Assembly (NCBI GenBank): GCA_964651705.1
Contig: CAZYWZ010000014.1
Span: 9,743 to 73,742 of the forward strand
Length of the DNA stretch: 64,000 nt
Source: an uncultured Verrucomicrobiales bacterium
Lineage (GTDB): Bacteria > Verrucomicrobiota > Verrucomicrobiia > JADLBR01
Direction of reading: 5' to 3'
Shown: positions 3,745 through 61,767 of the stretch, one piece after another
Layout: the number at the start of each line of letters is the position of its first letter
Position numbering within the stretch: the stretch's first letter is position 1
Made by a program: the position numbers and the translations under genes
Notes under the pieces: generated by a model
What the model was told of the DNA's origin: nothing
Database searches by the model: none
Seen by the model: the letters and a program-made list of their open reading frames with translations, nothing else

Positions 3745-3793
3745 CGGCAGGGTTTCGGCTGTTTTCTTGTTGGCGATATGGCAGGGTTGAGGC

Positions 3794-4414
3794 GTGCGGG
3801 ATAGGGGATATCGGTGGCGAGGCATGTCCTCCGGAGAACGGGCGGAAGTGGTAGCGTTGCGAAAGGCTCGCCGGTGGCCATGGCATGCGCCCCCACACGG
3901 GAGCTTCAAGAACGGGGGGCACTTTCATTTAACGGCGGCCTGTTTCGAGCACCGGGCGCACATCGGGCACTCCATCGAACGAATGGAGGATTTTGCGGGC
4001 GGGCTGTTGCGTGCCGTGGCCGAAGGCGGAGGGCAGGCGTTGGCCTGGTGCGTGCTGCCGAACCATTATCACGCGCTGGTCGATGCCGGTGTGCTGCGGC
4101 ATCTGCTTGACGCGCTGGGCCGATTGCATGGTCGCAGCGCTTGCGCCTGGAATCGGGAGGAGGGAATGCCGGGCCGCAAGGTTTTCTTCCGCGTGGCGGA
4201 TCGGGCGATGCGCTCGGAGCGGCACTTTCTGGCGACGCTGAACTACGTGCACCACAACCCGGTCCGCCACGGCTATGTCGCGCGCTGGACGGATTGGCCG
4301 TGGTCGAGCGCATCGGAGTATTTTTCGCGCGTGGGGTGGTCGGAGGCTGAGCGTCGTTGGCGGGAGTATCCCATCGGCGATTATGGCAGGGGCTGGGACG
4401 ACGCCGACCTGTGA
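3794..4414 (+). CDS. REP-associated tyrosine transposase (RAYT, IS200/IS605-like Y1 HUH enzyme)
   Basis: HuH motif LPNHYHALV, C-terminal catalytic-Tyr region LNYVHHNPVRHGYV, and an N-terminal WPWH..GG.FHLT block typical of RAYTs. Flanked by REP R1 copies. Confidence 0.8.
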   Translation: MRDRGYRWRGMSSGERAEVVALRKARRWPWHAPPHGSFKNGGHFHLTAACFEHRAHIGHSIERMEDFAGGLLRAVAEGGGQALAWCVLPNHYHALVDAGVLRHLLDALGRLHGRSACAWNREEGMPGRKVFFRVADRAMRSERHFLATLNYVHHNPVRHGYVARWTDWPWSSASEYFSRVGWSEAERRWREYPIGDYGRGWDDADL

Positions 4415-4420
4415 GGGCAT

Positions 4421-4482
4421 GCCGCGTGAACGCGGCACTACGAGCGGGGGAAGGTTCGTCGCGACACCTTCAGGCGTTCTGG
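4421..4482 (+). repeat. REP element, family R1, right copy
   Basis: Direct repeat of 3683-3744 starting 7 nt after the RAYT stop. Confidence 0.8.
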
Positions 4483-4501
4483 GCGAAGGCGCTGCGCGAG
4501 G

Positions 4502-6628: not shown

Positions 6629-6669
6629 CTTCTGTCTCCGGTCTTCATTTTATTTTGCCATGCGAAGGG

Positions 6670-8946
6670 CTACGGCGCCTCCAGCGGCGGCGGGGGATGC
6701 ACCGGGTGGGCCGCCGGCCAGGTGGCGCGGGACTCGTTTTGGCGCAACCCGATCTGCTCGAAAGGGATTCTCTCGAACCCGATATTCCAGGCGGGCGAGT
6801 CCCCCCGAAGCTGGAAGTTGCCGGCCTTTTCATTGACGAACCTGGGGTCCACATCGACCAGGTTGTCTTCCAGTCGCACCAGATCGAGGACCTTCGCTTC
6901 GATGTGTTGCCACCACGTCGCTTCGATGGGTTTGCCTTGAGACATGCGGCGCAGATACTCGCCCTGTCCCTGCCAGAAGATGTTGCGGCGAACGATGTTG
7001 CCTTTGGGCTTTGCGGGCTCATCGTCCAGCATCGTCGCAAGCTTCGGATAACGCGTGCTGAAAGGTGGCTCTTTGAAGCGAACGCCGCAAAGCTCCCCTG
7101 TCTCTCGGGCCGTCTTGAGTCGCGGCTCCACGGCATACGCCGCCCAGCCCAAGGCGCGCGCATCCAGATGAAAGGCCCGCGGGCAATCCACGAAGACGTT
7201 GTTTTCGACGAGATTATCACGCCCTCCGCCGATAAAGACCGCCTGCATGACCTGAGAAAAGACATTGTTTCGCACCGTGGCGCCGGAAAACTCGTCGTCC
7301 AGATAGATGCCCCTGCACCAGCCGCCATCCTTGCCGCTGATATGGTGCAGGTAGTTGTATTGAAATACGTTGCCGCGCAAGCACCAGCTGCGCCCGGCGT
7401 AGATCGCGCCGCAGTCGTGCGATTCATTGCAGACATTGTGGATCTCGTTGTATTCAAACAGATGCTCCTGGCCGCCGAACAGGATTGCGGCGTGGGGGGC
7501 GTCGTGGATCAGGTTGTGTGACGCGCGGAGGCCCACGCCGCTCATGAAAATCCCCGGCCGATACATTCGATCCCAGCGGCCATAGTGATGGATGTGGTTG
7601 TTCTCGGCAAAATGGCCGCCCGGCTCGAGCGTCTTTCTGTCGCCTCCGATGAGGTAGATCCCGCCGCCGCCCATGCCGTGCATGTCGCAGCCGACGACAC
7701 CGTTCTCCTTGCCTTCGAAGATGGTGACGGCGTGGTTGCCCAGATTGCGGAACGTGCAGGCGACAAGGCGGCATCGTTGGCCGCCGGTAATGGTGATTGC
7801 CGTCCCGCGCGCGGCCTCCATCAGCAGGCCGTGAATCGTGACGTGCGACGCGTCTGTCATCGTGAAGAGGCCCGGCGCCATCGAGACCTCGACCCGCGCG
7901 CGTTCGATGGGCCCCGGAGGCCAGAGGTAGAGGATTCCCGCCGCGCGGTCGATATACCATTCGCCGGGCGCGTCGATTTCGCAGAGGAGATTGAATCCGC
8001 GGAACCACTGGCCCTTCCGGTAGCCGTAATAGTGGTACGGTGGCTCGACGGAGATGATCCGCTTCTCTGGATCGATGGATGCGATCTTGTGGCGCTGTGT
8101 GGCCCAGTCGCGGAACCAGTATCCGCGGACCCACGCGTCCTTCTCGCCCAGCCACCGCCTGGGCCGGTCGCCCTCGTAGACGAACACACCCTCCTTGCAG
8201 CCCTTGGTGCCACGGACATCGATCTCCGTCTTGCCCAGCACCTCTTGAATCTTGATGAAGTCGTCGTTCGGCCAGCGCGACAGCGTCATCGGCTGGTCGT
8301 TGAAGAAGACCTCCAGTCGCGGCTTGACTGTCTTGCCCGCACTGGCGTGTGCGCTCCCAATCATGTCCTCGGCCTGATTGTCGACCTTTGCCAGCCACAA
8401 CTGGAGCTCCGCCGCGGCGTCCAGGCCGAGGTCGCCATATTCTGTCACGCCCAGCGCGCGCAGATCGGCTTGAAACACCTTGCCGCGCGCAGGCGGATCC
8501 AGACGGCTGAGGGTGGCTGGCTCGGTGACGGGGCTCCATCCACCCACGATTCGCCCTCCACTGATGTGGACCGCGTCGCCCCGTCTCGCGCGATAGATGA
8601 TGGGGGAGTCAGCGGTTCCGGAATCTTCCGCAGTCAGTGCGACGGGCTTCGAGAGCTCATATCTGCCGGCCAGAATCTCCACGACGATGCCGCCTCTCGG
8701 CAGGCCGCCATTCGCCTTGATCCGGCGGATTTCATCGCGGGCGCGCTCGATCGTGGCGAACGGCCCGTCGGTCTTTCCGGTGTTCGGTTCCGCCGCATTG
8801 CCGGACCACGCGTCGTCGCCATCCGCGGCCACGTAAATGATCGCGCCTGGATGTTCCTCGGGCGCCGCATCTCGGTCGGCGGGCGCACAGGCGGCGATCG
8901 CCGCCAGCAGGGTTGCAGACAATGCCGTTCGCAGATCGTCCCTCAT
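6670..8946 (-). CDS. secreted right-handed parallel beta-helix repeat protein (pectin-lyase fold), putative polysaccharide lyase/hydrolase
   Basis: Lipoprotein-like signal (LLAAIAAC). Repeated NxxxHD/NN[VI]F beta-helix turns. Paralog of 23856-26252 with shared blocks NHIHHYG/NHIHHLG and HDAPHAAILFGG/HDAPYSGIIGGG. Confidence 0.65.
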   Translation of the reverse strand: MRDDLRTALSATLLAAIAACAPADRDAAPEEHPGAIIYVAADGDDAWSGNAAEPNTGKTDGPFATIERARDEIRRIKANGGLPRGGIVVEILAGRYELSKPVALTAEDSGTADSPIIYRARRGDAVHISGGRIVGGWSPVTEPATLSRLDPPARGKVFQADLRALGVTEYGDLGLDAAAELQLWLAKVDNQAEDMIGSAHASAGKTVKPRLEVFFNDQPMTLSRWPNDDFIKIQEVLGKTEIDVRGTKGCKEGVFVYEGDRPRRWLGEKDAWVRGYWFRDWATQRHKIASIDPEKRIISVEPPYHYYGYRKGQWFRGFNLLCEIDAPGEWYIDRAAGILYLWPPGPIERARVEVSMAPGLFTMTDASHVTIHGLLMEAARGTAITITGGQRCRLVACTFRNLGNHAVTIFEGKENGVVGCDMHGMGGGGIYLIGGDRKTLEPGGHFAENNHIHHYGRWDRMYRPGIFMSGVGLRASHNLIHDAPHAAILFGGQEHLFEYNEIHNVCNESHDCGAIYAGRSWCLRGNVFQYNYLHHISGKDGGWCRGIYLDDEFSGATVRNNVFSQVMQAVFIGGGRDNLVENNVFVDCPRAFHLDARALGWAAYAVEPRLKTARETGELCGVRFKEPPFSTRYPKLATMLDDEPAKPKGNIVRRNIFWQGQGEYLRRMSQGKPIEATWWQHIEAKVLDLVRLEDNLVDVDPRFVNEKAGNFQLRGDSPAWNIGFERIPFEQIGLRQNESRATWPAAHPVHPPPPLEAP

Positions 8947-23778: not shown

Positions 23779-23855
23779 GGTCTTCGCCTCATTTCGCTTC
23801 TGAAGGAGTTGGCAAGGATTCTCGCGCCAGAGACCTTTGCGTGCGGATCAGGGAG

Positions 23856-26252
23856 TCACTTCAACTCGATCATCCCGGCCTCATCGAGCCTCCAATTTTC
23901 CCCAAGCGTCCCCTCCCAGCAGTGCCATTCGCCGAACTCGCTATAGAAGGCGGCCATGTTGAAAGCGGCCCGGCGGTCTGTTGCCGGATTCAGGCCGAGG
24001 GCGGCGAACGGGATGGCCCATTCGCCGCGCCAGCCCTTGCCGAAGAGGCCGCCGGGGCCGGGGATGGACCCGGCGGCGAACCGCGTCGCCTTGCCCACTC
24101 GCTCGGCGGCGTCGGCGGGCGCGCCGGCATCCGTGCCGCTCTGGAGCGCGCCGCACGGGTAACCGCGCACGATAAACGTCGCGGGTTTCCCGTCGGGGGT
24201 CTTTCCCGCGATGCAGATCTCGACGCCGTCGTCCTTGCCCCAGACCGAGTTGGTGCTGACCTTGGCGGGGCCAAACATGGTGACGTTGGCGGCCACGTAG
24301 AGGCAGGTGTCGTCGTACGCAAACTTCGCCATGGCGGGAGCGCCACCGACGCTGAAGCGGGATGGTTCCCGGTCCAGCGTCTGGAGTTTCCCCGGCCATT
24401 CGCCAGTCTTCATCTCGCCGTCGATCGCCGGCGCGGCATCCGCGCGCTCGGCCACGGCGGGGCCCTTCTTGCGCGCCGGCGTGGGTTCTGGCGGCATCGC
24501 GTCGCTGATGGTGAATGGCTCTGGCGCGCCATTCGTTTTGCCGCCGTAGTAGATCACGTTGTTCTTCCATGCGCGGATGCCGTTCGCCTGGCGGACGTTG
24601 AGCTTGCCTGGCACGAACAGCGTATTGCCCTCGAAGGTGCAGCCCACGGATCGCTGGAACGAGACCGTCATGTCGCCATCGGCGATGAAGACGTTGTCGC
24701 GCACGGTGATGTTGCGCGTGATGTGATTGTGGGTGGGCATCGGAACCCCCACGGCCACGTTGCGCTCTATGACGCAGTCCCGAGCGCCCTCGTCGAGGTA
24801 GTAGGCCGAGGCCCCGAAACCGCTGCCCGCCTGCACGACATCCCGGACGACGTTTCCCCGGATGGTGCAGGCATTCATGTTGCCGTAGATCGCCGCGCCG
24901 TCATGCATCTCGCGCATCACGCGGTAGATCAGGTTCTCCTCGATGAGGTTGCCCGTGGATCCGCCCCCGCCGATGATCCCGGAGTAGGGCGCGTCGTGGA
25001 TCTCGTTTCGGAGGATGCGCAGCCTGTTTCCGGTGAGCATGGACGCGGCGGCGCCGGGGTAGTACACGCCCAGGTGATGGATGTGGTTCCGGGCGATGAG
25101 CGTCTCCTCGCCCTGGATCTTTGCGCCGCACGCGCCGATGTGATGGATCCGGCAGCCGGTGAGGCGGCAGTTGAAAAGCTGATCCCCCCGGAAGCCGACG
25201 CCGCCGACGTTGCGGATCTCGAGATCCTCGAACGCGCAGTTCTTTCCGGAGACCACGTGGATGGCGCCGTCGAATGCGGTGGCGCCGAAGCTCGCGGGCT
25301 TGAGCGGCGCGGTGGTCGCCTGCACGCCCAGGCCGCGAATCGTCATGCCCTCGACGGGTTTGTCGCGAGAGCCGGTGATGCCGATGACCCTTTGGGTGGC
25401 TGGCGCGACGATCTTGATCTTGGCCATGTCCTCGCCCTGGAGCGGCCAATAGACGAGGCGGCCGGCCGTGCGGTCGAGGTACCACTGGCCCGGGCGGGTC
25501 ATTCCCTCACGCGTGTTGTAGATCACGTACTTCCTCCGGTTCAAGGCCCCGGGTGGCCAGGCGGGCTCGGAGGAGAGGATCAGCGCGTGCCGTTGGAGAT
25601 CGTTGCTGGAGACCCCGACGAGCGATTCGGCCCACATGTGGTACAGGCGGACCTCGGCGTTTCTCACGTCGAGCGTGGGCGGGATGTCCTTTGGGTCGTA
25701 GGGCATCGTGGTGAGTTCCTCGTGCGTCGGCTTGCGCTCCCAATGTCCCGCTACGGCGGGCAGGAGGGGCAGGTTCCAGGTGCCTAGGTTCTCGAACGCG
25801 TTGGTCGCCGGGAAGCGGGCGCGCTCGGCGAGTCGGCCGTCGACGACCAGGGCGCGAAAATCCCATGTCCCCTCCTTGACGCCGGGCAAGTCCGCGCACC
25901 ACAGGGCGCCGCCGCAGCGCTTCCAGCCCGTCACGCGGCGGCCACCGTACAGCGTGGCGCCGTTGGTGGTCGCCGACTCGATGGTCAGGCCGTTGTCGCG
26001 GGCGTCGAACTCGACGGGCCGATGAAGGAAATACTCGCCTGGCATCACGGCGATGCGATGGGGTCCCGTGCCGGCCTTCCTCGCCGCATCGCGCGCCGCC
26101 TCCAGCGTCGCGAACGGTTGCTGCTCGGTTCCGGCGTTCGTGTCGTCGCCCCCGGGGGCGACATGGAAGGTGGCGGAATCCGCCGGCTCAATGAAGGCCA
26201 GCGCGACGGCGGCCAAGATCGCCGCATGGTTGGTGTGGATCGCCTGATTCAT
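23856..26252 (-). CDS. secreted right-handed parallel beta-helix repeat protein with C-terminal extra domain, paralog of 6670-8946
   Basis: Start MNQAIHTNHAAILAAVALAF at 26252 overlaps the upstream stop (ATGA, 26249-26252). Beta-helix repeats RNHIHHLG, NEIHDAPYSG, NLIEENLIY. The ORF-track N-terminal 337 codons (to 27263) are rejected. Confidence 0.65.
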   Translation of the reverse strand: MNQAIHTNHAAILAAVALAFIEPADSATFHVAPGGDDTNAGTEQQPFATLEAARDAARKAGTGPHRIAVMPGEYFLHRPVEFDARDNGLTIESATTNGATLYGGRRVTGWKRCGGALWCADLPGVKEGTWDFRALVVDGRLAERARFPATNAFENLGTWNLPLLPAVAGHWERKPTHEELTTMPYDPKDIPPTLDVRNAEVRLYHMWAESLVGVSSNDLQRHALILSSEPAWPPGALNRRKYVIYNTREGMTRPGQWYLDRTAGRLVYWPLQGEDMAKIKIVAPATQRVIGITGSRDKPVEGMTIRGLGVQATTAPLKPASFGATAFDGAIHVVSGKNCAFEDLEIRNVGGVGFRGDQLFNCRLTGCRIHHIGACGAKIQGEETLIARNHIHHLGVYYPGAAASMLTGNRLRILRNEIHDAPYSGIIGGGGSTGNLIEENLIYRVMREMHDGAAIYGNMNACTIRGNVVRDVVQAGSGFGASAYYLDEGARDCVIERNVAVGVPMPTHNHITRNITVRDNVFIADGDMTVSFQRSVGCTFEGNTLFVPGKLNVRQANGIRAWKNNVIYYGGKTNGAPEPFTISDAMPPEPTPARKKGPAVAERADAAPAIDGEMKTGEWPGKLQTLDREPSRFSVGGAPAMAKFAYDDTCLYVAANVTMFGPAKVSTNSVWGKDDGVEICIAGKTPDGKPATFIVRGYPCGALQSGTDAGAPADAAERVGKATRFAAGSIPGPGGLFGKGWRGEWAIPFAALGLNPATDRRAAFNMAAFYSEFGEWHCWEGTLGENWRLDEAGMIELK

Positions 26253-29851: not shown

Positions 29852-30628
29852 CTAGACCTCGGCATCCGGCGGGACGAGTTGCACCGAGCAGCCGCCATCG
29901 ACGACGAGCCGCGCCCCGGTGATCCGGGCGGCGTCGTCCGACGCCATGAAGAGGACGGCCCCGGCGATGTCATCGGCCGATGACTCGCGGCCCAGCGGGA
30001 CGTTGGCGCGGCGGCGGGCGACCTGCGCGTCGTCGAGCGCATCCCAGCGATCCGTGTGGATGTAGCCGGGCGCGACGGTGTTGACGCGGATGCCGTGGGG
30101 ACCGAGCTCGATGGCCATGGCGCGCGTCAGGGCATCGACGCCACCCTTGGAGGCGCAGTAGGCGCTCCGGTTTCGGATGGGGCGCTCGGAGACGTTCGAG
30201 CCGACGTTGACGATCGCGCCGCCGGTCCCCTGAGCGATCATCATGCGGGCGGCCAGTTGGGCGCAGTGGAACAGGCCGATCAGGTTGACGCGGAGGGTCT
30301 TTTCCAGCAGATCCAGCGGGGTGTCGACGAAGGAGGGGCCGATGGCTTGCGCGACGGCGTTGTTGACGAGAATGTCCAGGCCGCCGCATTCGCTTCGGAC
30401 GAGGTCAAACATCGCCTGGATCTGCGCGGGGTCGGAGAGGTCCGCGGGCGCCTCGATGAGGCGCGCGCCGGCAGCGGATCGGATCGCGGCGGCGGCGGCG
30501 GCCGCGCCCTTGGCGGTGGAGCCGTTGATCGCGACGGTGGCGCCCGCCTCGGCGAAGCGGCGGGCGATGCCCAGGCCCGTGTTGCGGGAGGCGCCGGTGA
30601 CTAGGATGCGTTTGCCCCCGAAGTTCAT
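29852..30628 (-). CDS. short-chain dehydrogenase/reductase (KduD/UxuB-like 2-keto-3-deoxy-sugar-acid reductase candidate)
   Basis: TGASRNTGLG Rossmann motif, NNAV, S..YCASK (Y-x3-K) catalytic motif. Confidence 0.8.
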   Translation of the reverse strand: MNFGGKRILVTGASRNTGLGIARRFAEAGATVAINGSTAKGAAAAAAAIRSAAGARLIEAPADLSDPAQIQAMFDLVRSECGGLDILVNNAVAQAIGPSFVDTPLDLLEKTLRVNLIGLFHCAQLAARMMIAQGTGGAIVNVGSNVSERPIRNRSAYCASKGGVDALTRAMAIELGPHGIRVNTVAPGYIHTDRWDALDDAQVARRRANVPLGRESSADDIAGAVLFMASDDAARITGARLVVDGGCSVQLVPPDAEV

Positions 30629-30695
30629 GCTGAATCGAAACTTCTGGGTGTAGCCACGGTCGTGAGACCGTGGACGTGCTGGCCGAGCGCCCGGA

Positions 30696-30720
30696 CCCAT
30701 CTGTTACCAGATGGGCTACA
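30696..30720. repeat. hairpin motif CCCATCTGttacCAGATGGGCTACA, family R5, copy 1
   Basis: 8-bp perfect stem and 4-nt loop. Also at 36800-36824 and 38528-38551 in the same orientation, each upstream of a minus-strand gene start. Confidence 0.7.
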
Positions 30721-30737
30721 TTCTTGATCGCCTAGAA

Positions 30738-31919
30738 TCATGCTTTCGTTCCTCCGGTTCCAAAATACGACGTCGCATCGGGTGGGCGGATCTGCGTGAG
30801 CGCGCCGGTGTAGTGGCGGAGGTCGCGCGGCACGTAGGGATGTTTCGCGATCTCGCCCTCCCGGATGTCGATGCCGAGGCCCGGGGCATCCGGGATGAGC
30901 ATGTGGCCGTTCTCGAGGCGCGCGGCCTCGGTGCTGACCTCGCGGCGGTGCGCCACGTCGGAGGACATCGTTTCCAGAAGGAAGAAATTGGGCGTGCAGG
31001 CGGCGAGTTGCAGGGTCGCGGCGTTGGCGACGGGTCCGGAGGGGTTGTGGGGGCAGACGGGGATGTGGTGGGCCTCGGCCATCGCGGCGATCTTCCGGAC
31101 CTCGCCGATGCCGCCGGCGTGGCTCACGTCCGGTTGGATGTAATCGGCGCACCCGAGCCGGAGGTAATTGCGGTAGTCCCAGCGGCTGTAGAGGCGCTCG
31201 CCCCCGGCGATCGGCACCTTCACCCGGCGTTTGATCTCGGCCAGCGCCTCCGGGTTATCGGGGGGGATCGGTTCCTCGAACCAGGTGATATCGAAGTCCT
31301 CCAGCGCGTGGGCGATGCGGACTGCGGTCGGCACGTTGAAGCGGCCGTGGCCCTCGATGAGGATGTCCACCTCGGGACCCGCGGCCGAGGCCACGGCGGC
31401 GATGCATTCCAGCGCCCCGCGCAACTCGCGCTTTCCGATGTCCCTGTACGCGCTGCCGAAGGGATCCCACTTCAGCCCGCGGAAGCCTTGCGCCACGGCG
31501 GCCCTGGCTTTCTCCGCGAACTCGTCCGGCGTCACGGCCGGCGCAAACCATCCGTTGGCATAGCAGGGCACGCGGTCGCGCACCCGGCCCCCGAGCAACT
31601 GCCACACCGGAACCCCGAGCGCCTTGCCCTTGATGTCCCAGAGGGCCATCTCGACCCCGGCCAGCGCGCTCATCAGGACGGGGCCGCCCCGCCAGTACGC
31701 ATCGCGATACGCGTCGTGCCAGAAGGCCTCGATGTCGTGCGGATCGCGGCCCACGAGATAGCGTCCCAATTCGCGGCAGGCTTGCGCCACGGTCTGCTCG
31801 CGCATCTCCAGCGTGGCTTCGCCAACGCCGTGAAGGCCGCCGTCGGTGTCGACCCTGACGAAGACCCAGTTCGTCCGGTACGCGTGGCAGAGGAAGGTCT
31901 GGATGCCGGTGACTTTCAT
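30738..31919 (-). CDS. enolase-superfamily D-galactonate / D-mannonate dehydratase family (DgoD/ManD)
   Basis: AYWRGGPVLMSALAGVEMALWDIKGKALGVPVWQLLGG matches the DgoD/ManD capping-domain block. LSHAGGI barrel motif. 393 aa. Confidence 0.8.
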   Translation of the reverse strand: MKVTGIQTFLCHAYRTNWVFVRVDTDGGLHGVGEATLEMREQTVAQACRELGRYLVGRDPHDIEAFWHDAYRDAYWRGGPVLMSALAGVEMALWDIKGKALGVPVWQLLGGRVRDRVPCYANGWFAPAVTPDEFAEKARAAVAQGFRGLKWDPFGSAYRDIGKRELRGALECIAAVASAAGPEVDILIEGHGRFNVPTAVRIAHALEDFDITWFEEPIPPDNPEALAEIKRRVKVPIAGGERLYSRWDYRNYLRLGCADYIQPDVSHAGGIGEVRKIAAMAEAHHIPVCPHNPSGPVANAATLQLAACTPNFFLLETMSSDVAHRREVSTEAARLENGHMLIPDAPGLGIDIREGEIAKHPYVPRDLRHYTGALTQIRPPDATSYFGTGGTKA

Positions 31920-32002: not shown

Positions 32003-32092
32003 GAGGGTGGGCCCGTGCCACCCGGAGGCCAACTGGCAAATTGCGTCAGTGATTTGCGAAACTGCGACATCCCGCGCCGCGGGGCCGGCGCC

Positions 32093-32150
32093 CGTAACGC
32101 GGACACTCCTGTCCGCGATCCATGGGCGGACAGGAGTGTCCGCCCTACGG
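32093..32150 (+). repeat. REP doublet, family R2 (GCGGACActccTGTCCGC / GCGGACAggagTGTCCGC), left
   Basis: Two 7-bp-stem hairpins in inverted orientation. Repeated at 32945-33039 (three hairpin units). The two sites flank RAYT 2. Confidence 0.8.
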
Positions 32151-32255
32151 CATTTGGGCTTGCCGGGTCGGGAGGGATTCGCGATAGGGTTCTCTCCGGG
32201 TATGGAGAAGGGTCGGGGAAATTCGTATCCTTTTGAATTCAAGGCTCGGGATGGG

Positions 32256-32918
32256 ATGGGGTGCGGCCCGCGCCCCCGGATCCCATTCATCGGCCTGAAC
32301 CAAGATGGGCAAATCCGCATCACATGTCGGCGATTGCCGCATTGGACTCAGGCGGGCGTGTCGTACTTTGTGACGTATCGTCTAGCCGATTCCGTACCAT
32401 TGAAACTATTGCGCCGATGGCGTGAAGAGAGGGATATTTGGTTGCGCTGGCACCCTGAGCCTTGGACCAGAAAGGTGCAGGAGGATTATGAAGAGCGATT
32501 CACCGAACGCATGGAGCGATGGGTGGATGCGGGAGTGGGCGCGTGTCAACTGCGCCGTCCCGAGATTCGAGCGATAGCCGAAAGGCACCTATTGCACGGC
32601 GATGGATCGAGGCACGATGTGGATTCGTATGTGATCATGCCAAACCACGTGCATGCGATCCTGACCCCGAGGGCGGGCAACGACCTGTTCGGGCTCCTCC
32701 AGGGCATCAAGGGCGTGAGCGCGCGCAACATCAACCGGCTCCTTGGCCGTATCGGCGCGAGGCTCTGGATGGAGGACGCGTATAACAGGATCGTGCGTGA
32801 CGCGAGAGAACTATGGGCGTTCCGCCAATACATCGCACTGAACCCGGTTAAGGCCCGGCTGCGTCCGAATGAATATACCCTGGTGTTCGCGGACGTGCTG
32901 GAGGCCAGCGGACCGTAG
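32256..32918 (+). CDS. REP-associated tyrosine transposase (RAYT) of a second, different group
   Basis: N-terminal RITCRRLPHWTQAGVSYFVTYRL, HuH motif IMPNHVHAIL, catalytic Tyr region AFRQYIALNPVKA. 220 aa. Only the C-terminal part of ORF-track 30711-32918 is taken; the rest is antisense to dgoD. Confidence 0.8.
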   Translation: MGCGPRPRIPFIGLNQDGQIRITCRRLPHWTQAGVSYFVTYRLADSVPLKLLRRWREERDIWLRWHPEPWTRKVQEDYEERFTERMERWVDAGVGACQLRRPEIRAIAERHLLHGDGSRHDVDSYVIMPNHVHAILTPRAGNDLFGLLQGIKGVSARNINRLLGRIGARLWMEDAYNRIVRDARELWAFRQYIALNPVKARLRPNEYTLVFADVLEASGP

Positions 32919-32944
32919 CGGTGACTCTTTTGTGGGACGGGGGC

Positions 32945-33039
32945 GTAACGCGGACACTCCTGTCCGCGATCCATGGGCGGACAGGAGTGTCCGCCCTACG
33001 GCGTTCGGGTTGGGGCGGACAGGAGTGTCCGCCCTACGA
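32945..33039 (+). repeat. REP triplet, family R2, right
   Basis: Starts ~27 nt after the RAYT 2 stop. Near-identical to 32093-32150 plus one extra hairpin unit. Confidence 0.8.
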
Positions 33040-36779: not shown

Positions 36780-36799
36780 CGGATTCTCTCGCGGCGGGG

Positions 36800-36824
36800 C
36801 CCATCTGTTACCAGATGGGCTACA
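36800..36824. repeat. hairpin motif CCCATCTGttacCAGATGGGCTACA, family R5, copy 2 (glcD-glcF intercistronic)
   Basis: Identical to copy 1. 21 nt upstream of the glcF start. Confidence 0.7.
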
Positions 36825-36854
36825 TCGGGATCTTTCGCATCGGCGCGCATGGTG

Positions 36855-38219: not shown

Positions 38220-38331
38220 GGTGAACCTTTCTTGTGAAGGGGCTCATTTATGCGTGAGGTCGATCAAAAAGGCAAGTGCGGGTGTGGCGCCTGTGGCGGG
38301 GCGTACACGGTCTGGCGATCGCGGTTGCGAA

Positions 38332-38494
38332 TTTTCGAGCTAGATCCCGTGTCCCGCCCGCGGGGCACCACCGGGGGTGAAAATGTAGGGCGCGAAATCC
38401 CTTTCGCGCCACGGGCAACCGGCAGGGCCCTCGTGGCGCGGATGGGAATCCGCGCCCTACAGGCCGATCCCGTGGCCGATTTTCGAGTCAGGTC
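38332..38494. repeat. composite REP/MITE-like element: 50-nt conserved head, GTAGGGCGCGAAATCCCTTTCGCGCCAC palindrome doublet (family R3), GATTTTCGAGTC tail
   Basis: Same three-part architecture at 53125-53268. Doublet units at 38385-38412 and 38433-38460 are mutual reverse complements. Followed by further hairpins CCCGCCCgatGGGCGGG and R5 copy 3 (38528-38551). Confidence 0.7.
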
Positions 38495-38604
38495 ACATCC
38501 CGCCCGATGGGCGGGACCATCGGGGAACCCATCTGTGACCAGATGGGCTACGTTTTTGGATTCTCGAATCGGCGGGGAGGGTGGCGGGTATTCCCTGGCG
38601 GGGA

Positions 38605-39621
38605 TCAATCCACCTGTTTGAACTGGCCGCCCTTGGACTGTTTGGCGAGGTCGCGGAGGGAGGAGCCAGCCTGGGGTGCGCCGAGGGCGATGGTGTTGAC
38701 CTTGATGTTCTTGGCCTTCTCGGCGAGGAGTTTAACGCCCTTTTCGGCCTCGGCCTTGCCCTCGGCGCCGTCGGTCATGAAGAAGATGACGTCGGGCGGG
38801 GGTTTCATGGCGAGCGCGACGCCGAGCGCGGGGACCCAATCGGTGCCCCAGACAAGTTCCTGTTTTTCGATCTCGCGGAGGCTGCGTCGCTTGTTGTTTT
38901 CGGTGGCCGCGATCCACTTGGCCTTGGGCACGTCATCGGGGTCCTTGGTGTGCCAGTTGTTGTTGTCCTTGTGGGCCCACCGTTTCTCTTTGACGTCCTC
39001 GCCGGCGAGCCAGACGGGTCCGGCGAAGAAGACGAGGGCGTAATTGGCCTCGGGGCTGAGGCCCTTGACGGCCCTGGAGAGTTCCTCGCGCATGAGGGCC
39101 TCGCGGGTCTTGCCGCCCTTGGCCTTGCCCTTCATGGATTCGGAGAGGTCGACGACGAAGGCGATGTACTGGCCGGTGGCCTTGAGGCCGAAGAACTCGA
39201 CGCCCATCATGCCCGCGGCGGAATTGCCGCGGCCTCCCATCATGGAGGTCACGTCAGAGACCTGATCGGAGACGAGGCTTGTGGGGTCGAACTCGAGCAT
39301 GTCGACGGGGACCTTTGGGATGTCGGGCAGCGCGAACTTGGCCTCGCGGACCGAGGCGATTTTCTGGTCGATGACGGGGCGGGGGGCGGCGGCCTCGAGT
39401 TCCTGTATGGTGACCTTCGGGTCGATGATCTTCGGGGGGATCTTGACGGGGCGGGAGACGAAGGTGGCCTCCGGCGGCGGGAAGAAGCGGGCGATGATCC
39501 AGTATAGCGCGCCGACGCCGATGATCGCGTGGACGACGATGCTGAGCGTGATGGCGGCGGCGACGATCTTGCGCCGTTTGCCCTTCGCTGTGTCTTTCAG
39601 CTCTTCGACGTTGACGGACAT
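38605..39621 (-). CDS. TonB-like membrane anchor (TM with S-x3-H, Pro-rich spacer) fused to a C-terminal von Willebrand factor A domain
   Basis: N-terminal KRRKIVAAAITLSIVVHAIIGVGALYWII (TonB-type S-x3-H signal-anchor), then PPPEATFVSRPVKIPPKIIDPKV proline-rich segment, then vWA-like IAFVVDLSESM...VIFFMTDGAEG (MIDAS-like D-x-S-x-S...T...D). Last gene of the exbB-exbD-exbD operon. Confidence 0.65.
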   Translation of the reverse strand: MSVNVEELKDTAKGKRRKIVAAAITLSIVVHAIIGVGALYWIIARFFPPPEATFVSRPVKIPPKIIDPKVTIQELEAAAPRPVIDQKIASVREAKFALPDIPKVPVDMLEFDPTSLVSDQVSDVTSMMGGRGNSAAGMMGVEFFGLKATGQYIAFVVDLSESMKGKAKGGKTREALMREELSRAVKGLSPEANYALVFFAGPVWLAGEDVKEKRWAHKDNNNWHTKDPDDVPKAKWIAATENNKRRSLREIEKQELVWGTDWVPALGVALAMKPPPDVIFFMTDGAEGKAEAEKGVKLLAEKAKNIKVNTIALGAPQAGSSLRDLAKQSKGGQFKQVD

Positions 39622-49768: not shown

Positions 49769-50001
49769 CCCGTGCCCCAAATCCTCGCGTAAGGATCGCT
49801 CCCCGAGTGACGTACCCTCAACGAACCGTATAGGACACAGGCACGTCACTTTGCCAAGTTTTGTAGGGCGCGGATTCCTATCCGCGCCACGCACGGTCCT
49901 GCCGGTTGCCCGTGGCGCGAAAGGGATTTCGCGCCCTACATTCCCAAGTGTTGCGCCTCCGGGTAGTGCCTTACGCGAGGATTTGGGTCCGTGCGCACGG
50001 G
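49769..50001. repeat. MITE-like palindromic element: ~26-nt terminal inverted repeats (CCCGTGCCCCAAATCCTCGCGTAAGG / CCTTACGCGAGGATTTGGG..CACGGG) enclosing an R3 palindrome doublet (49863-49939)
   Basis: The internal doublet is the reverse-complement arrangement of the 38385-38460 doublet. TIR arms match 23 of 26 positions with one 7-nt insertion. Confidence 0.6.
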
Positions 50002-53030: not shown

Positions 53031-53091
53031 GATTTGCGCGGCGCGGCACGGCCGTGGCGCAGAGCCGGGGTGTGGTGGGCCCCGGTGGCGC

Positions 53092-53268
53092 GGGCCAAAC
53101 GCCTTGGGGCGTTCGGCTGCGGGAATCTTCGAGCTAGATCCCGTGCCCCGCGTGCGGGGCACCACCGGGGCGGAAAATGGTAGGCTGCGCCTTGGCGCAC
53201 GCTGCCGAATCGAATGTCCGCGTGCGCCAAGGCGCAGCCTACATCGCGACCCGATTTTCGAGTCGGGT
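53092..53268. repeat. composite REP/MITE-like element (R4 motif, R7 head TTCGAGCTAGATCCCGTGCCCCGCGTGCGGGGCACCACCGGGG, TAGGCTGCGCCTTGGCGCAC palindrome doublet, GATTTTCGAGTC tail)
   Basis: Same head and tail as 38332-38494. The core doublet is a sequence variant (53180-53200 and 53222-53242, mutual reverse complements). Confidence 0.65.
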
Positions 53269-53274
53269 CCCTGG

Positions 53275-53883
53275 TCACTCCCCGTCCTCCGCGCTTGGCA
53301 GGCGGATGTCCCATTTCAGCGCGGCCATGCGCAGGAGGAAGATCACGGTCAATCCGGCGGGCATCGTGACCTGCGCGGGGGCGCCCGCTTGGCCTAGGAG
53401 GAGGTACACCCACGCCCCGATGAATGCGCAGGTCGCGTGTAGCGGTGCCGAGCGGAACAGGCTGGGGATCTCGTTGCAGATGACGTCGGCTATGACGCCG
53501 CCGAAGGTGCCGGTGATCACCGCGAGGATCGAGGCGATCAGACGCGAGGTCCCGGACTCCAGCGCATAGGCCGCGCCGGTGATGCTGAAGAGCGCGAGCC
53601 CGAGCGCGTCGGGGATGGGCAGGAAACGCTCGAGGCGCCGCATCGCGCGCGGCATCAGGGACCCCGCGATGGCCAGCCCCAGCACGATGGCCGCGTAGTG
53701 ATGCTTGGCGATCCAGAACAGCGGGTGGCGATCGAGGAACACGTCCCGCAACGTGCCGCCGCCGAAGGCGATCGCCCCCGAGACCGCGAATAGGCCCACC
53801 GCGTCGAAACGCTTCCGGCAGCCGAGCAGGATGCCGTACATCGCGGAGGAGATGACCGCGAAGCACTCGATGGTGGTGAGCAT
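53275..53883 (-). CDS. UPF0126/TRIC-family membrane protein (YicG/YadS-like, two UPF0126 repeats)
   Basis: GGGTLRDVFL glycine-rich motif in repeat 1 and GTFGGVIADVI in repeat 2. 6-7 TM segments. Start MLTTIECFAV. Confidence 0.7.
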   Translation of the reverse strand: MLTTIECFAVISSAMYGILLGCRKRFDAVGLFAVSGAIAFGGGTLRDVFLDRHPLFWIAKHHYAAIVLGLAIAGSLMPRAMRRLERFLPIPDALGLALFSITGAAYALESGTSRLIASILAVITGTFGGVIADVICNEIPSLFRSAPLHATCAFIGAWVYLLLGQAGAPAQVTMPAGLTVIFLLRMAALKWDIRLPSAEDGE

Positions 53884-54037
53884 TCCGACGCCATGATACG
53901 ACCCGCGGGCGCGAGCGGGAGGAGATTCTCGTGCCGGCCGGCCGGGATGTCCGCTGTAGCGAAGGGCGCCCAGAGATAAGCGGGCATGTGACCATTCGCC
54001 CGAGAGCGTGTATATATTCTCACGAGGAACGCGCCCC

Positions 54038-55060
54038 ATGCGAAATCAGGACCCTCCCCCTAGCTCCCCTCATTCTCATTTTCTGCCGGTTGTCGCCCTT
54101 TTCATCATGGCGCCGGTCTTCTCCGAGCTGCTCTCGGGATACCTGCCGCCCGCGAAGTTCTTTCAGCTTCGGAGCCTCGCGCTGAACATCGCCTTCTATA
54201 GCAGCGGCGCGATTCTGATTCGCGAGCTGTTGGTCCGCTGGGAAAAGGGGTGGCCGACCCTGCTCTTGCTCGGCGCGGCCTACGCCCTGCTTGAGGAAGG
54301 ACTGATGACCAAAGCCTTCTTTGATCCGGAGTGGCATGAGGTGGGGATGCGCGCGGGCTATGGCCGGCTCGGGGGTGTCAATTGGATACTGGCCTTGCGC
54401 CTGATTATTTTCCATTCGGTCTTGAGCATCTCCATTCCGATCGTGATGGCCCATTTCATGTTCCCGAAGCGCAGCGCCGAACCCTGGATCAACAACTGGC
54501 TTTTCGCGTTTTTCTTGGTGCTCTTGGCGGCGGGCACGGGGCTTGGCTATTTCTTTGCGACGCCCTATCGCATTCCGCCTCTCCAACTTTGTCTTGGCTG
54601 GCTGGCTTTCTTTCTGCTGATCGCCCTTGCCAGACTGCTGCCCCGCGAGCCGTTCAAGCTTCGCGGGCGGCCAAGCGTCTCCCGCTGGTGGTTCTTTTTG
54701 ATAGGTCTTCTGGCGCCCATTGGCTTTGTGGTATTCGGATTCAAAGTTCCCTCGGATGGCAAGCTCCCCGCTTGGGCGGCGCTGCTTCTTTTGGCGGGCT
54801 TCGCGGGCTTCATCCTCTGGCTTGTCATGAAGCTTTCGGGCAATTGCGGGGCATGGAAGGCGCGCCAGCGCTTTGCTTTGGCTTCAGGCGTCGTGATGTT
54901 TTCCACCATATTGATGATTATGAACGAGCAGGACGATGGCTCGAAGCGGTTGGTCGGTCTGGCGGGCCTGATCTTTGTGATTATGATGGCCCGGCAGGCC
55001 CGCCGTGTGGAAAAATGGGAAGCAGTCGAATCCGGGGGCGGCCCACGATTCCCTTGTTGA
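54038..55060 (+). CDS. polytopic membrane protein, function unknown
   Basis: About 340 aa with 8 or more hydrophobic segments. Divergently oriented to the UPF0126 gene. Start could be 54008. Confidence 0.5.
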   Translation: MRNQDPPPSSPHSHFLPVVALFIMAPVFSELLSGYLPPAKFFQLRSLALNIAFYSSGAILIRELLVRWEKGWPTLLLLGAAYALLEEGLMTKAFFDPEWHEVGMRAGYGRLGGVNWILALRLIIFHSVLSISIPIVMAHFMFPKRSAEPWINNWLFAFFLVLLAAGTGLGYFFATPYRIPPLQLCLGWLAFFLLIALARLLPREPFKLRGRPSVSRWWFFLIGLLAPIGFVVFGFKVPSDGKLPAWAALLLLAGFAGFILWLVMKLSGNCGAWKARQRFALASGVVMFSTILMIMNEQDDGSKRLVGLAGLIFVIMMARQARRVEKWEAVESGGGPRFPC

Positions 55061-56369: not shown

Positions 56370-56420
56370 GTAGGGCGCGAAATCCCTTTCGCGCCACAAG
56401 CAACCGGCAGGACCGCGCGC
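56370..56420. repeat. single R3 palindrome unit GTAGGGCGCGAAATCCCTTTCGCGCCAC plus spacer, followed by further hairpins (GGCGGTTTGcaaCCGCC, GGGGCGCTTccAAAGCGCCCC)
   Basis: Located between rmuC and the sulfatase. The hairpins may also serve as the rmuC terminator. Confidence 0.6.
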
Positions 56421-59563: not shown

Positions 59564-59661
59564 CGTTAGAGCCAACCATGAGGCGATGCCCTGGCGCGAA
59601 GAGTGAATCCTCGCGCAGGGACGCGGGGACGCGGGGAAGTTCTTGGTTTGGCCGATCGCGC

Positions 59662-59802
59662 CAAAGCGGTGCGGGGACGCACCGCACTCCAGAGCGCTGC
59701 GCGCGAAATCTCGCAAGATCCCATGACGGTTGCCGCGTCAGTCGACTTGGCGCCGTTTCGGCCGAAGGCCTTTGGAGTGCGGGTCGTCCCCGCACCGCTT
59801 TG
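59662..59802. repeat. 33-nt inverted repeats (CAAAGCGGTGCGGGGACGCACCGCACTCCAGAG / revcomp-like CTTTGGAGTGCGGGTCGTCCCCGCACCGCTTTG) separated by 75 nt
   Basis: Arms match 30 of 33 positions. Each arm also contains its own hairpin GCGGTGC..GCACCGC. Lies in the leader of the GH32 gene. Confidence 0.55.
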
Positions 59803-59829
59803 TCCGCGACGCGAGACCATGTCACATCG

Positions 59830-61767
59830 TTGCCGGGTCGCCTCGCGCTCGGCCTGCTCCTCTGCGGTCTCGCGAACGCGCCGTCGTCGGCCAACGCGCC
59901 TGCCGAAATCGTGATCGGCGATTTCGAGGGCGAGGGCTTTGGGGGTTGGAAGGCGGCGGGCGAGGCCTTCGCCGCGCCGTTTCACCCGGCGCCCGCGAAG
60001 CGCCCGGAGGGCCTGGAGGGTGAGCGCATGGCGTGGAGCGGCGCGTCAGGGGTGGCGGCGCAGGGAGAATTACTCTCACCCGAGTTCGTCGTCGAGCGCC
60101 GGTATATTAACTTCCTGATCCGCGGCCAGCGGGATTTCGCGCGCGTGCTCGGTGCGGAATTGGTCGTTGGCAATGCGGTGGTGCGCTCGGCCTGCGCGAC
60201 GGAGGACCGGGGTGGCGCGGGCCTGTATTGGAGGACGTGGGACGTTGACGATTTGCGCGGGCGGCCCGCCCGGATTCGGGTCAACGACCATTCGGGCCGG
60301 GGCGATGTGGCGGTGGATCAGTTCGTGCGGGACGAGAGGCCCCGCGGGGTACCCTGCGATGCGACGCGCTTTCTCCACGAGAGCCATCGCCCGCAATTCC
60401 ACTACACCGCGCCGGCCCACTGGCTGAACGATCCCAACGGCCTCTTTTATTACCGGGGGACGTGGCACCTGTTCCACCAGCATCGCAGCCCGGCCTTCGC
60501 GGGGACCGTCTGGGCGCATGCCTCGGGCCCCGACCTCATGCATTGGAGGCATCTCCCGATCGCGATCAGCGCGGATGGCGAGGACAGCCATTATTCGGGA
60601 TCCGGTTTGGTCGATTGGGATAACATCTCAGGGCTGAAGGCGGGAGAGCATCCGCCCATTCTCCTTTTCTATGGGCTCCGGCCGCCGGGCCCGGCGGAGT
60701 TGCCGCATCCGTCTCCGGACGACCGCCGCGCGACGCAATGCATGGCATTCAGCACGGATGGGGGGCAGACCTTCGCCAAGTTCGCCGGAAACCCGATCCT
60801 CAGCACCCCGGATTATCGGGACCGCGACCCGAAGGTCTTCTTCCACAAGCCGTCCCGGGCCTGGATCATGGTCCTCTCCCTCTCCCGCAATAACGCGGAC
60901 CGGGAGGCCGCGACCTTCGGCATCTTCCGATCGAAGGACCTCCGCGATTGGGAGCTGGCGCAAGAGGTGGGGCCCGGCGCTTGGTACTGGGAATGCCCCG
61001 ACATGTTTGAGATGGCGGTCGATGGCGATCCGGCAAAGACGAAATGGCTGCTGCTGCGGGGCAGCGGCGAATACATCCTCGGCGCCTTCGATGGCCGGCG
61101 CTTCGAGCCGGAGAGCGAGCCGATCCGCAATCGGTGGGGTGCGTCCTATTACGCGACGCAGACTTTCAGCGATGCGCCTGACGGGCGACGCGTCCAGATC
61201 GGCTGGATGAATACGGGCAAGGCCAGGGCCCCGAACAGTTATCCCGGCATGCCCTTCAACCAGCAGATGAGCATCCCTCGCGAACTGGTCCTCCGAGAAA
61301 CCCCGCAGGGCCCCCGCCTCTTCCGCGAACCGGTCGAGGAGATCGGCGGCCTCTATGCCAAGGCGCACCAGTTCGAGAGGCGCGAGCTGGCGCCGGGCGA
61401 GAATCCGCTGGAGGGCGTCTCCCATGACCTTCTGGACATCGAGGCCGAGATCGTCCTGGGCGCGGCGCGGGCCATCCGGCTGGCGCTCCGGGGCGAGCCC
61501 GTGGAGTACGACGTGAAGGAGCGGGCGCTCAAGGGCTTTGGGGTCTGCGCGCCCGTGGCGTGCCCGGATGGGCGACTGCACCTGCGGGTCTTGCTGGATC
61601 GCACCAGCATCGAGGTGTTCGGAAACCACGGTGAGGCCGACCTGTCCGGCGTCTTTTTCCCGCACCCGGAGAACCGCGGCATTTCCCTGTCGGCCGAGGG
61701 CGGCGCGGCGACCCTGGAACGGCTCGAGGTCCGAGAACTGCGATCCGTCTGGCCAGACGGCGAATGA
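59830..61767 (+). CDS. glycoside hydrolase family 32 (beta-fructofuranosidase / levanase / inulinase type), secreted
   Basis: WLNDPNG (nucleophile Asp), YRDRDPKVF (RDP), WECPDMF (EC acid/base). Proposed TTG start gives signal LPGRLALGLLLCGLANAPSSANA. The ORF-track start at 59056 is rejected as an overlap artifact. The start codon is uncertain. Confidence 0.75.
   Translation: MPGRLALGLLLCGLANAPSSANAPAEIVIGDFEGEGFGGWKAAGEAFAAPFHPAPAKRPEGLEGERMAWSGASGVAAQGELLSPEFVVERRYINFLIRGQRDFARVLGAELVVGNAVVRSACATEDRGGAGLYWRTWDVDDLRGRPARIRVNDHSGRGDVAVDQFVRDERPRGVPCDATRFLHESHRPQFHYTAPAHWLNDPNGLFYYRGTWHLFHQHRSPAFAGTVWAHASGPDLMHWRHLPIAISADGEDSHYSGSGLVDWDNISGLKAGEHPPILLFYGLRPPGPAELPHPSPDDRRATQCMAFSTDGGQTFAKFAGNPILSTPDYRDRDPKVFFHKPSRAWIMVLSLSRNNADREAATFGIFRSKDLRDWELAQEVGPGAWYWECPDMFEMAVDGDPAKTKWLLLRGSGEYILGAFDGRRFEPESEPIRNRWGASYYATQTFSDAPDGRRVQIGWMNTGKARAPNSYPGMPFNQQMSIPRELVLRETPQGPRLFREPVEEIGGLYAKAHQFERRELAPGENPLEGVSHDLLDIEAEIVLGAARAIRLALRGEPVEYDVKERALKGFGVCAPVACPDGRLHLRVLLDRTSIEVFGNHGEADLSGVFFPHPENRGISLSAEGGAATLERLEVRELRSVWPDGE

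Follow-up and report, generated by a model that had tools for sequence, protein, structure and literature searches.

The DNA analysed here, referred to as the window, is a 64,000-nt (64-kb) stretch of a contig from an uncultured Verrucomicrobiales bacterium, whose nearest public relatives are Verrucomicrobiia MAGs. Composite repeats occupy four loci of this window. Locus 1 (38330-38491) lies between a VWA-domain gene and glcD, and locus 2 (53124-53266) between convergent DUF5703 and YeiH-like genes. The other two, at 49.8 kb and 56.4 kb, are located between divergent genes and between rmuC and a sulfatase gene, respectively. All four loci are intergenic in a gene map based on GC3, in agreement with the boundary placement given by the original prediction. 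Three parts are common to the two full loci: a head of 55 nt, an inverted doublet of REPs (GTAG...CTAC) and a tail carrying ATTTTCGAG. The window also contains two RAYT-type (HUH/Y1) transposase genes, each located between its own REPs. The features are as follows.

3682-4489, + strand: RAYT-1 unit, with the gene (3794-4414) between two 70-nt REP-containing repeats (3682-3751 and 4420-4489).
32069-33035, + strand: RAYT-2 unit, consisting of a 25-nt hairpin leader resembling the head core (ATCCCGCGCCGCGGGGCCGGCGCCC), a REPIN, the gene (32256-32918), again a REPIN, and a further REP with CTAC at its end; the related contig L023 lacks the entire 967-nt unit.
36782-36849, + strand: 68-nt insertion located between the glcD stop and the glcF start, with a leader, a D1 REP, CTAC and a ATCTTTCGCAT-type tail; the site is empty in the related contigs L023 and L022.
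38276-38604, no strand: variable intergenic mosaic between the VWA-domain gene (38605-39621, - strand) and the conserved glcD promoter region; the L023 blastn alignment breaks at 38604 and 38281, and the L022 alignment starts at 38276.
38331-38343, + strand: junction motif ATTTTCGAG-CTAG, identical to the tail motif; it probably represents either the flank or the 3' terminus of a decayed unit that came before; arrays of relatives end in exactly this 13-mer.
38344-38384, + strand: locus-1 head core, with ATCCCG, the hairpin GTGTCCCGC/GCGGGGCAC, CACCGGGGG and GAAAAT, supported by the covariance model R1 and by folds.
38385-38460, no strand: locus-1 REPIN, with unit A (38385-38412, + strand), a 20-nt spacer and unit B (38433-38460, - strand), GTAG being outermost on each.
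38461-38491, + strand: locus-1 tail, with a family-specific spacer, ATTTTCGAG (38479-38487) and TCAG.
38492-38527, + strand: second, diverged head core GTCACATCCCGCCC-GAT-GGGCGGGACCATCGGGGAA, with its parts in the same order as in canonical heads.
38528-38569, + strand: single D1-family REP CCCATCTGTGACCAGATGGG-CTAC (38528-38551) followed by a degenerate tail GGATTCTCGAAT; D1 copies are at 30692, 36796 and 38524, and a terminator-like call was made on the + strand.
49863-49939, no strand: REPIN A/B, oriented the other way and lacking both head and tail; the neighbouring genes are divergent (repeat matches of 98% and 97%).
53094-53120, - strand: half REPIN of family iii (GCCAAACGCCTTGGGGCGTTCGGCTGC) upstream of the locus-2 head, with iiiR at 53120 (- strand); family iii also precedes heads in the related contigs L007 and L010.
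53125-53178, + strand: locus-2 junction motif ATCTTCGAG-CTAG (53125-53137) and head core (53138-53178), matched by R1 with 81.3 bits (E=8e-17).
53180-53242, no strand: locus-2 REPIN, of another family, GTAGGCTGCGCCTTGGCGCACGC ... inverted copy.
53243-53266, + strand: locus-2 tail, which includes ATTTTCGAG (53254-53262); 13 nt further on, the convergent gene 53275-54039 has its stop codon.
56370-56414, + strand: single REP unit A with most of the REPIN spacer, the second unit being missing (46 nt, 93% identity).

The composite organization originally predicted, a REP-like repeat made of a head, an inverted doublet and a tail, was found again with every feature at its predicted position or within 1-8 nt of it. 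The heads of both full loci follow the formula AAT(T/C)TTCGAG-CTAGATCCCGTG(T/C)CCCGC-NNN-GCGGGGCAC-CACCGGGG-NN-GAAAAT, and the hairpin GTG(T/C)CCCGC..GCGGGGCAC can be drawn in each. A hairpin-bearing head is thus common to the two loci, as had been proposed: its 18-mer TTCGAGCTAGATCCCGTG occurs exactly twice in the window, at 38334 and 53128, both on the + strand, against 0.03 copies expected from shuffles, and none of 100 shuffles gave two copies. A repeat search of the window aligned 38296-38385 with 53090-53179 at 77% identity over 90 nt. At the other end of the element, the tail CCGATTTTCGAGTC is exact in the window only at 38476 and 53251.

The units between head and tail are imperfect palindromes of 23-28 nt, each with a terminal GTAG and predicted to form a hairpin, which places them in the GTAG superfamily of REPs (imperfect palindromes of 20-40 nt). 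The expected length of 28 nt holds for locus 1, but the units of locus 2 are only about 23 nt long. The unit GTAGGGCGCG-N10-CGCGCCAC is present five times in the window (38385+, 38433-, 49863+, 49912- and 56370+) against 0.43 expected. The inverted arms 38384-38413/38432-38461 are 87% complementary, and those at 49862-49891/49911-49940 are 83% complementary. At locus 2 the doublet is formed by GTAGGCTGCGCCTTGGCGCACGC at 53180 (+ strand) and 53242 (- strand). In each doublet the two inverted REPs are separated by a short spacer and fall into a single long hairpin in the minimum-free-energy fold, i.e. they form a REPIN. The units are also multicopy and extragenic, since the five A/B units and the other REP families of the 64 kb, which include D1, are all intergenic and the families are common to related contigs. 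The opposite orientation announced for the doublet at 49863-49939 was recovered (units at 49863+ and 49912-, with neither head nor tail). A single unit is indeed present at 56370-56397, but the copy extends further, through the spacer, to 46 nt at 93% identity. The window also has, at 59650-59810, a non-REP palindrome of about 150 nt, called palindrome X here.

The doublets of the two full loci had been read as one sequence in which compensatory changes preserve the palindrome. This does not hold: they belong to unrelated REP families with only GTAG/CTAC in common. True compensatory change is seen between the two units of one A/B doublet, where the stem is AAA:TTT in one unit and GAT:ATC in the other, and also in a variant of the head hairpin. 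Locus 1 is itself a two-unit array, composed of the head, REPIN A/B and tail, then a degenerate head, the D1 REP and a degenerate tail. Head motifs located between doublets, and tandem arrays at 38330-38569, in L010 (600-1030) and in L007, make these regions a BIME-like mosaic.

The covariance model R1 was built from 13 head copies and used to scan about 187 kb, comprising the window and related contigs. At E<0.005 it retrieved 22 heads, and four more with weaker scores. In the window, which carries two canonical heads and one degenerate head, the full locus-1 head (38330-38384) scores 81.7 bits (E=7e-17), and the diverged second head of this locus is one of the weaker matches (38478-38528, 18.7 bits, E=0.09). 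Pattern scans also found heads in related genomes, so that the further copies anticipated by the original prediction do exist. With an exact pattern and one genome per prokaryotic species, the head was found only in two Verrucomicrobiia MAGs, together with one chance match. A looser pattern applied to metagenome contigs yielded nine true loci, two of which are duplicate records, and five chance matches.

The head core is nearly invariant among these copies, with a mean column identity of 88%. Its hairpin is paired in 93.9% of the cells, which bears out the expected conservation of structure, and three pairs are changed on both sides. These changes correspond to a variant, CGCCC-GAG-GGCGG instead of CCCGC-NNN-GCGGG, and stem from one subfamily of about four copies. 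A REP doublet begins within 0-3 nt after GAAAAT in 23 of the 26 heads, and at least seven unrelated REP families occupy this position. Each doublet is followed by a family-specific spacer, by ATTTTCGAG-(CTAG|TCAG) and then by the next head (ATCCCG...) or the end of the array. The repeating unit is made of a head core (ATCCCG, an 8-9-bp GC hairpin, CACCACCGGGG, NN and GAAAAT), an inverted REP doublet and a family-specific spacer that terminates with ATTTTCGAG-YYAG. Head and tail are common to units whose REPs belong to different families, and the units are stacked head-to-tail downstream of gene 3' ends. In L010 (600-1030) the succession is (head-REPIN)x3 with three different families. It ends in ATTTTCGAG-CTA, the CTA being at the same time the stop of the convergent gene; L007 carries a two-unit array.

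Five metagenome contigs terminate 65-111 nt from a head, and Logan short-read contigs of the window's own glcD terminate inside the head. Such ends are the usual signature of a multi-copy repeat and indicate a high copy number in relatives. The head-REPIN arrays explain the fragmentation of assemblies at gene ends in these Verrucomicrobia.

Both RAYT genes carry visible HUH and catalytic-Tyr motifs in their translations, the HUH of RAYT-1 being HYH. RAYT-1 (3794-4414) matches NCBIfam NF047646 (REP_Tyr_transpos, 'REP-associated tyrosine transposase') with 71.8 bits (E=5e-20), and RAYT-2 (32256-32918) with 58.6 bits (E=6e-16) as well as Pfam Y1_Tnp (9e-6); both NF047646 scores are below the equivalog cut-off of 80 bits. 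In the databases, homologues of RAYT-2 carry the name 'REP element-mobilizing transposase RayT'; most of them lie on contigs of 1-3 kb, as expected for genes flanked by repeats. Among its orthologues with 61-64% identity, those of L026 and L027 also have the gene flanked by the REPIN core GGACAGGAGTGTCC. In the four orthologues of this identity range (L026-L029) the REPIN is kept and no canonical head is present. The head is therefore not part of the RAYT gene unit, the leader of the window RAYT-2 alone being weakly head-like. The two RAYT genes of the window are flanked by REP families R1 and R2, and no RAYT cognate to families A/B or ii was found in the window.

The comparison with Logan contig L023, which shows about 95% DNA identity to the window between 25.5 and 40.8 kb, reveals how these elements vary between strains. 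Every break in the alignment falls at a REP site, and the differences consist almost only of the presence, absence or swap of such elements. At the RAYT-2 locus the filled site reads CTGCGAC|ATCCCGCGCCGCGGGGCCGGCGCCC-GTAA-REPIN...RAYT...REPIN...CTAC|GATATGGC, and the empty site of L023 reads TTGCGAC|GAAATGGC. No target duplication accompanies this 967-nt insert (32069-33035). Its left end is exactly the ATCCCG-hairpin leader (|ATCCCGCG-hairpin) and its right end is CTAC|. The sequence GATTTGCGAAACTGCGAC upstream of RAYT-2 was considered as part of a head and discarded, as it is also present in the empty site of L023. Between glcD and glcF, L023 and the MAG contig L022 have 6-17 nt in place of the 68-nt insert, again without duplication. 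At 30628-30760 the window and L023 carry different REPINs, and at locus 1 the mosaic of the window (38282-38603) is replaced in L023 by a vapBC toxin-antitoxin pair. From the differences with L023 and L022, it follows that the gain, loss and replacement of elements take place within the time in which strains diverge.

These sites bear directly on the nature of the element, which the original prediction had labelled a MITE. A classical MITE would be a deletion derivative of an IS with a DDE transposase, with terminal inverted repeats GAAAAT...ATTTTC and target-site duplications. The doublet does lie between the short inverted repeats GAAAAT and ATTTTC, the unit has ATTTTCGAG at either side, in the manner of a direct repeat, and CTAG is the target of the IS630 family. 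However, unrelated loci, and different genomes as well, have the very same flanking ATTTTCGAG, and for this reason it is not a target duplication. Moreover, the real filled and empty sites show none, as is the case for IS200/IS605-type elements, both for the RAYT-2 unit and for the 68-nt REP unit. The interior consists of GTAG REPs, RAYT genes with matching REPs are present, and a DDE transposase with such ends did not turn up. Insertion occurs in a way that is closer to Y1/HUH than to DDE transposition, the enzymes associated with the elements being RAYT/Y1-HUH proteins. The MITE reading is already largely refuted, and we regard it as extremely improbable.

The same sites define the boundaries of the unit. 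Partial heads at the termini of arrays stop exactly before ATCCCG, and the RAYT-2 insert starts there. Two independent observations thus agree on |ATCCCG as the left boundary of the unit. As for the ATTTTCGAG-like tail, the 68-nt insertion shows that it moves together with the REP. Therefore, the head as first delimited has to be split: the initial 13 nt (ATTTTCGAG-CTAG) correspond to the tail motif and in all likelihood come from the preceding unit or flank, so that the unit consists of head core, REPIN and tail. In the window ATTTTCGAG is confined to these elements, and its absence elsewhere excludes that it is a common native target.

Downstream of the gene 53275-54039 the orthologous site in L030 (91% protein identity) carries a diverged head with a different REP, and that of L035 (82%) a REPIN without head. 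A clean empty site for canonical head, REPIN and tail was found neither at locus 1 in L023 nor at locus 2 in L030 and L035. The pattern in L030 and L035 is compatible with independent insertions at a hot spot, and also with a persistent head at which REPINs were exchanged. The diverged L030 head with its different REP means that the head could be a persistent landing site rather than cargo.

If so, the head would be a resident attachment site after whose GAAAAT REPINs of many families integrate and are exchanged like cassettes. The fixed junction between the head and at least seven REP families is what such a site would produce, and both the window and L030 have a head with different REPs downstream of an orthologous gene. 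In L006 and L022 the place between GAAAAT and ATTTTCGAG is taken by palindrome X, a head without REPIN exists (L004:2086), and integration beside a resident REP or BIME has been proposed for TnpA-REP (PMC3333891). However, the polymorphic RAYT-2 insert contains a head-like leader of its own, and the 68-nt D1 insertion brought its own leader and tail. The window has no empty head-only sites, nor is ATTTTCGAG found elsewhere in it. In addition, the hairpin variant CGCCC/GGGCG and REP family iii are found together, which is what joint copying of head and REPIN would give. We therefore consider a resident landing site unlikely.

A related view can be proposed. The left hairpin module down to GAAAAT, together with a right ATTTTCGAG-YYAG that recreates the insertion target, may constitute a docking frame independent of REP family. 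RAYT-type enzymes would stack doublets of many families, and even palindrome X, head-to-tail within this frame at stop codons (C-TAG/C-TGA). It is the position of palindrome X in the GAAAAT...ATTTTCGAG frame of L006 and L022 that favours this proposal. We put it forward tentatively and consider it rather unlikely. If true, REPINs would be assembled as arrays of cassettes, at a target and a joining site that are both defined.

Twelve independent arrays lie between convergent (six) or co-directional (six) gene pairs, and none between divergent ones. The tail side is directed towards the 3' end of a gene in 10 of the 12. In 7 or 8 arrays the facing gene ends with a TAG or TGA stop that, read on the other strand, is the YYA of ATTTTCGAG-YYAG. 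Either C-TAG/C-TGA is targeted by the element, or the stop is supplied by it. On the strand of the facing gene the REP hairpin is directly followed by CTAC-ATTTTC, which was scored as terminator-like by the scan. The region of the elements also has a more stable fold than shuffled sequences (z=-4.6 and -3.7).

The original prediction had also considered the head as a small structured RNA. In its wider form, this explanation sees the head, alone or with the REPIN, as a small RNA or as a 3'-UTR terminator or stabilizer of the neighbouring transcript, and it is not exclusive of the other readings. Conservation of the hairpin, with its three pairs changed on both sides, agrees with it, as do the location of nearly all arrays downstream of a gene 3' end, the terminator-like CTAC-ATTTTC and the folding scores. 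However, no Rfam family matched the head in gathering or E-value mode, even at E<=5, and a promoter scan detected no promoter-like site near the elements. The covariation is limited to the single hairpin variant, G·T and A·C mismatches are equally frequent (4 vs 4) and favour no strand, and no U-tract follows the head hairpin on either strand. Furthermore, conservation extends to the sequence itself, as expected of recent repeat copies. A structured RNA thus appears very unlikely as the explanation of the head.

Other searches concerned the REPs and the wider window. On the REPs, Rfam returned only hairpin matches below threshold (mraW, 28 bits for a threshold of 50; Acido-Lenti-1, 23 bits for 37). 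A tRNA scan of the window found none, and no matches suggesting a phage or plasmid origin were obtained. A Chi-like reading of CCGGTGGTG was set aside, as the match is partial and on the wrong strand for a Chi site. All three heads of the window are on the G-rich strand. Across contigs, however, the GC skew of the strand that carries the head is positive in some cases and negative in others, one contig has heads in both orientations, and the skew is unreliable on short contigs; a replication-strand bias of heads is unsupported across these contigs.

Taken together, these data make it probable that the loci form a cluster of GTAG-tagged REPs and REPINs, organized as a BIME-like mosaic handled by RAYT proteins, in which the head is a left-end cis module of a non-autonomous unit. 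The role of the head as the left-end module of a RAYT-mobilized unit is the most likely one. Several observations count against this interpretation: the more distant RAYT-2 orthologues have no canonical head, RAYTs cognate to families A/B and ii are not in the window, head orientation has no consistent GC-skew bias such as IS200/IS605 would give, two canonical heads and one degenerate head are all that 64 kb contain, and the comparison of filled and empty sites gave no clean pair for a canonical unit. By analogy with E. coli TnpA-REP and with IS200/IS605, a RAYT would bind the REP hairpin with its 5' GTAG on single-stranded DNA and would cut in flanking or linker DNA. Rejoining would then take place without target duplication, preferably beside resident units, and could generate the arrays. 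In such a scheme, cleavage and joining could plausibly take place at the conserved C|TAG of the junction. As a side effect, the REPIN hairpin and the AUUUUC after it could serve, on the strand of the neighbouring gene, as a 3'-end hairpin or terminator.

The E. coli BIMEs (REP/PU with the extra-palindromic motifs L, S, A and B; RIP/RIB) provide a close parallel. They also show alternating GTAG REPs, conserved non-palindromic linkers and a tandem arrangement after gene 3' ends, with a Y1/HUH transposase gene located between REPs (PMC3333891, PMC2817692). E. coli TnpA-REP binds the hairpin of GTAG REPs on single-stranded DNA, cleaves at C|T sites of the iREP and linker and recombines BIMEs beside resident ones (PMC3333891). 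However, the linker is here a 55-nt head with its own hairpin, more conserved than the REPs, and it joins at least seven unrelated REP families, unlike E. coli, where the Y and Z variants belong to one family. The host is moreover a member of the Verrucomicrobiota and not of the Enterobacteria, and no IHF-type site is evident, inspection by eye revealing no obvious IHF consensus. The REPIN-RAYT system of Pseudomonas fluorescens SBW25 (Bertels and Rainey 2011) shares the inverted doublet forming a long hairpin as replicative unit, a RAYT located between its REPINs, and vertical inheritance with turnover at the strain level (PMC3116915). A classical REPIN, however, consists of two REPs and a spacer, without shared leader or tail and with one RAYT per family, whereas many families are found here with common flanking modules and in mixed arrays.

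According to Di Nocera et al. 2013, GTAG REPs are highly enriched in the verrucomicrobium Opitutus terrae, where several families coexist (PMC3733652). That study, whose O. terrae families were compared by their description, mentions neither a head-like hairpin module nor (head-REPIN)n arrays (PMC3733652). In A. variabilis and H. neapolitanus, REP dimers lie inside conserved palindromes with GAAA...TTTC, for example GCTTCGAAAaACC--GGTaTTTCgAAGC (PMC3733652). The Neisseria NIMEs, in which dRS3 is interleaved with RS elements, are likewise intergenic mosaics where a short conserved repeat alternates with other families (cited in PMC3733652). However, dRS3, the constant part of NIMEs, is a CGTC-type REP; in the present elements it is the head, not a REP, that stays constant, and the REP doublets vary. 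With IS200/IS605 elements such as IS608 and ISDra2 the system shares a Y1 HUH transposase, subterminal hairpins at the ends, the lack of target duplication (RAYT-2 unit) and possibly insertion 3' of a short target. It differs from them in units without a transposase gene, in the lack of a detected replication-strand bias, and in ends made of REPs and head instead of the imperfect palindromes LE and RE.

REPs, BIMEs, REPINs and RAYTs are well known, and so are GTAG REPs in Verrucomicrobia. In the cited REP, BIME and REPIN literature we found no description of a 55-nt hairpin module at a fixed position before many REP families, of regular mixed (head-REPIN)n arrays or of arrays abutting stop codons. 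REP, BIME and REPIN elements are among the commonest bacterial repeats. The copying of REPs by RAYTs and the assembly of mosaics are unsettled, and mechanistic work has almost all been carried out in E. coli and Pseudomonas. If the head is simply a hitch-hiking linker, the elements described here would represent an ordinary lineage-specific BIME. This lineage nevertheless offers a single hairpin module to which REPs of many families are attached at one defined nucleotide, as well as regular arrays, exact junctions (|ATCCCG and ATTTTCGAG-YYAG|) and strain-level filled and empty sites that include a whole RAYT unit. The fixed junctions, arrays and filled and empty sites make the cleavage and joining sites predictable and amenable to tests with oligonucleotides, and they could reveal whether linkers, besides REPs, carry cis-acting information.

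The strain-level presence or absence of the window's second RAYT unit is notable because the usual description of RAYTs is of single-copy genes passed on vertically. A whole RAYT gene with its flanking REPINs (window 32069-33035) is precisely missing from L023, a contig approximately 95% identical in DNA to this part of the window, and its insertion in the window shows no target duplication. In the same strain comparison, the exact position of the window's REP mosaic (38282-38603) is occupied in L023 by a vapBC-like toxin-antitoxin pair (2186-2855), consisting of an 80-aa gene and a 149-aa PIN gene. Differing insertions thus mark this intergenic region as a hot spot. A further REP unit, of 68 nt, is inserted after the stop codon of glcD and ahead of the start of glcF (window 36782-36849). 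As the glcD-glcF gap of relatives is only 6-17 nt, this unit splits a gene pair that is probably translationally coupled.

In seven to eight of the arrays of head-REPIN units (those of L005, L007, L010, L011, L018, L020 and L008), the motif ATTTTCGAG-CTA/TCA closes with three bases that, read as their reverse complement, form the convergent gene's stop codon. Each such array thus begins exactly at the stop codon. Another short repeat, GCGCCGCATCATTCATGTGGAA, recurs near arrays of related contigs (at ~1860-1885 in L004, at ~330-355 in L005 and, in L008, on the upstream side of the head at 75-129) and was not found in the window.

A long imperfect palindrome, here called X, gave z=-6.8 for the DNA fold in the window and has two related copies.

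Palindrome X and related copies
Window 59650-59810: long imperfect palindrome of ~150 nt, CAAAGCGGTGCGGGGACG...CGTCCCCGCACCGCTTTG
L006 ~6530-6700: related copy between a head-like ...GAAAAT and ATTTTCGAG/ATGTTCGAG
L022 13050-13190: related copy between a head-like ...GAAAAT and ATTTTCGAG/ATGTTCGAG

The presence of these motifs on either side of X in both related contigs argues that X is a non-REP 'cargo' carried in the same frame as the REPINs. On a crude gene map, high-GC3 ORFs were not found in window 23779-26248, 54008-55060 and 59564-61537. The second of these stretches contains a 350-aa ORF whose GC3 is lower and which may be a foreign gene or one for a membrane protein.

Finally, REP hairpins in two stretches (window 38378-38471 and 38528-38561) gave sub-threshold Rfam matches to mraW RNA (28 bits versus a threshold of 50) and Acido-Lenti-1 RNA (23 bits versus 37). 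These matches probably reflect generic hairpin similarity; they nevertheless prompt one to ask whether certain hairpin motifs in Rfam could be REP-like repeats.
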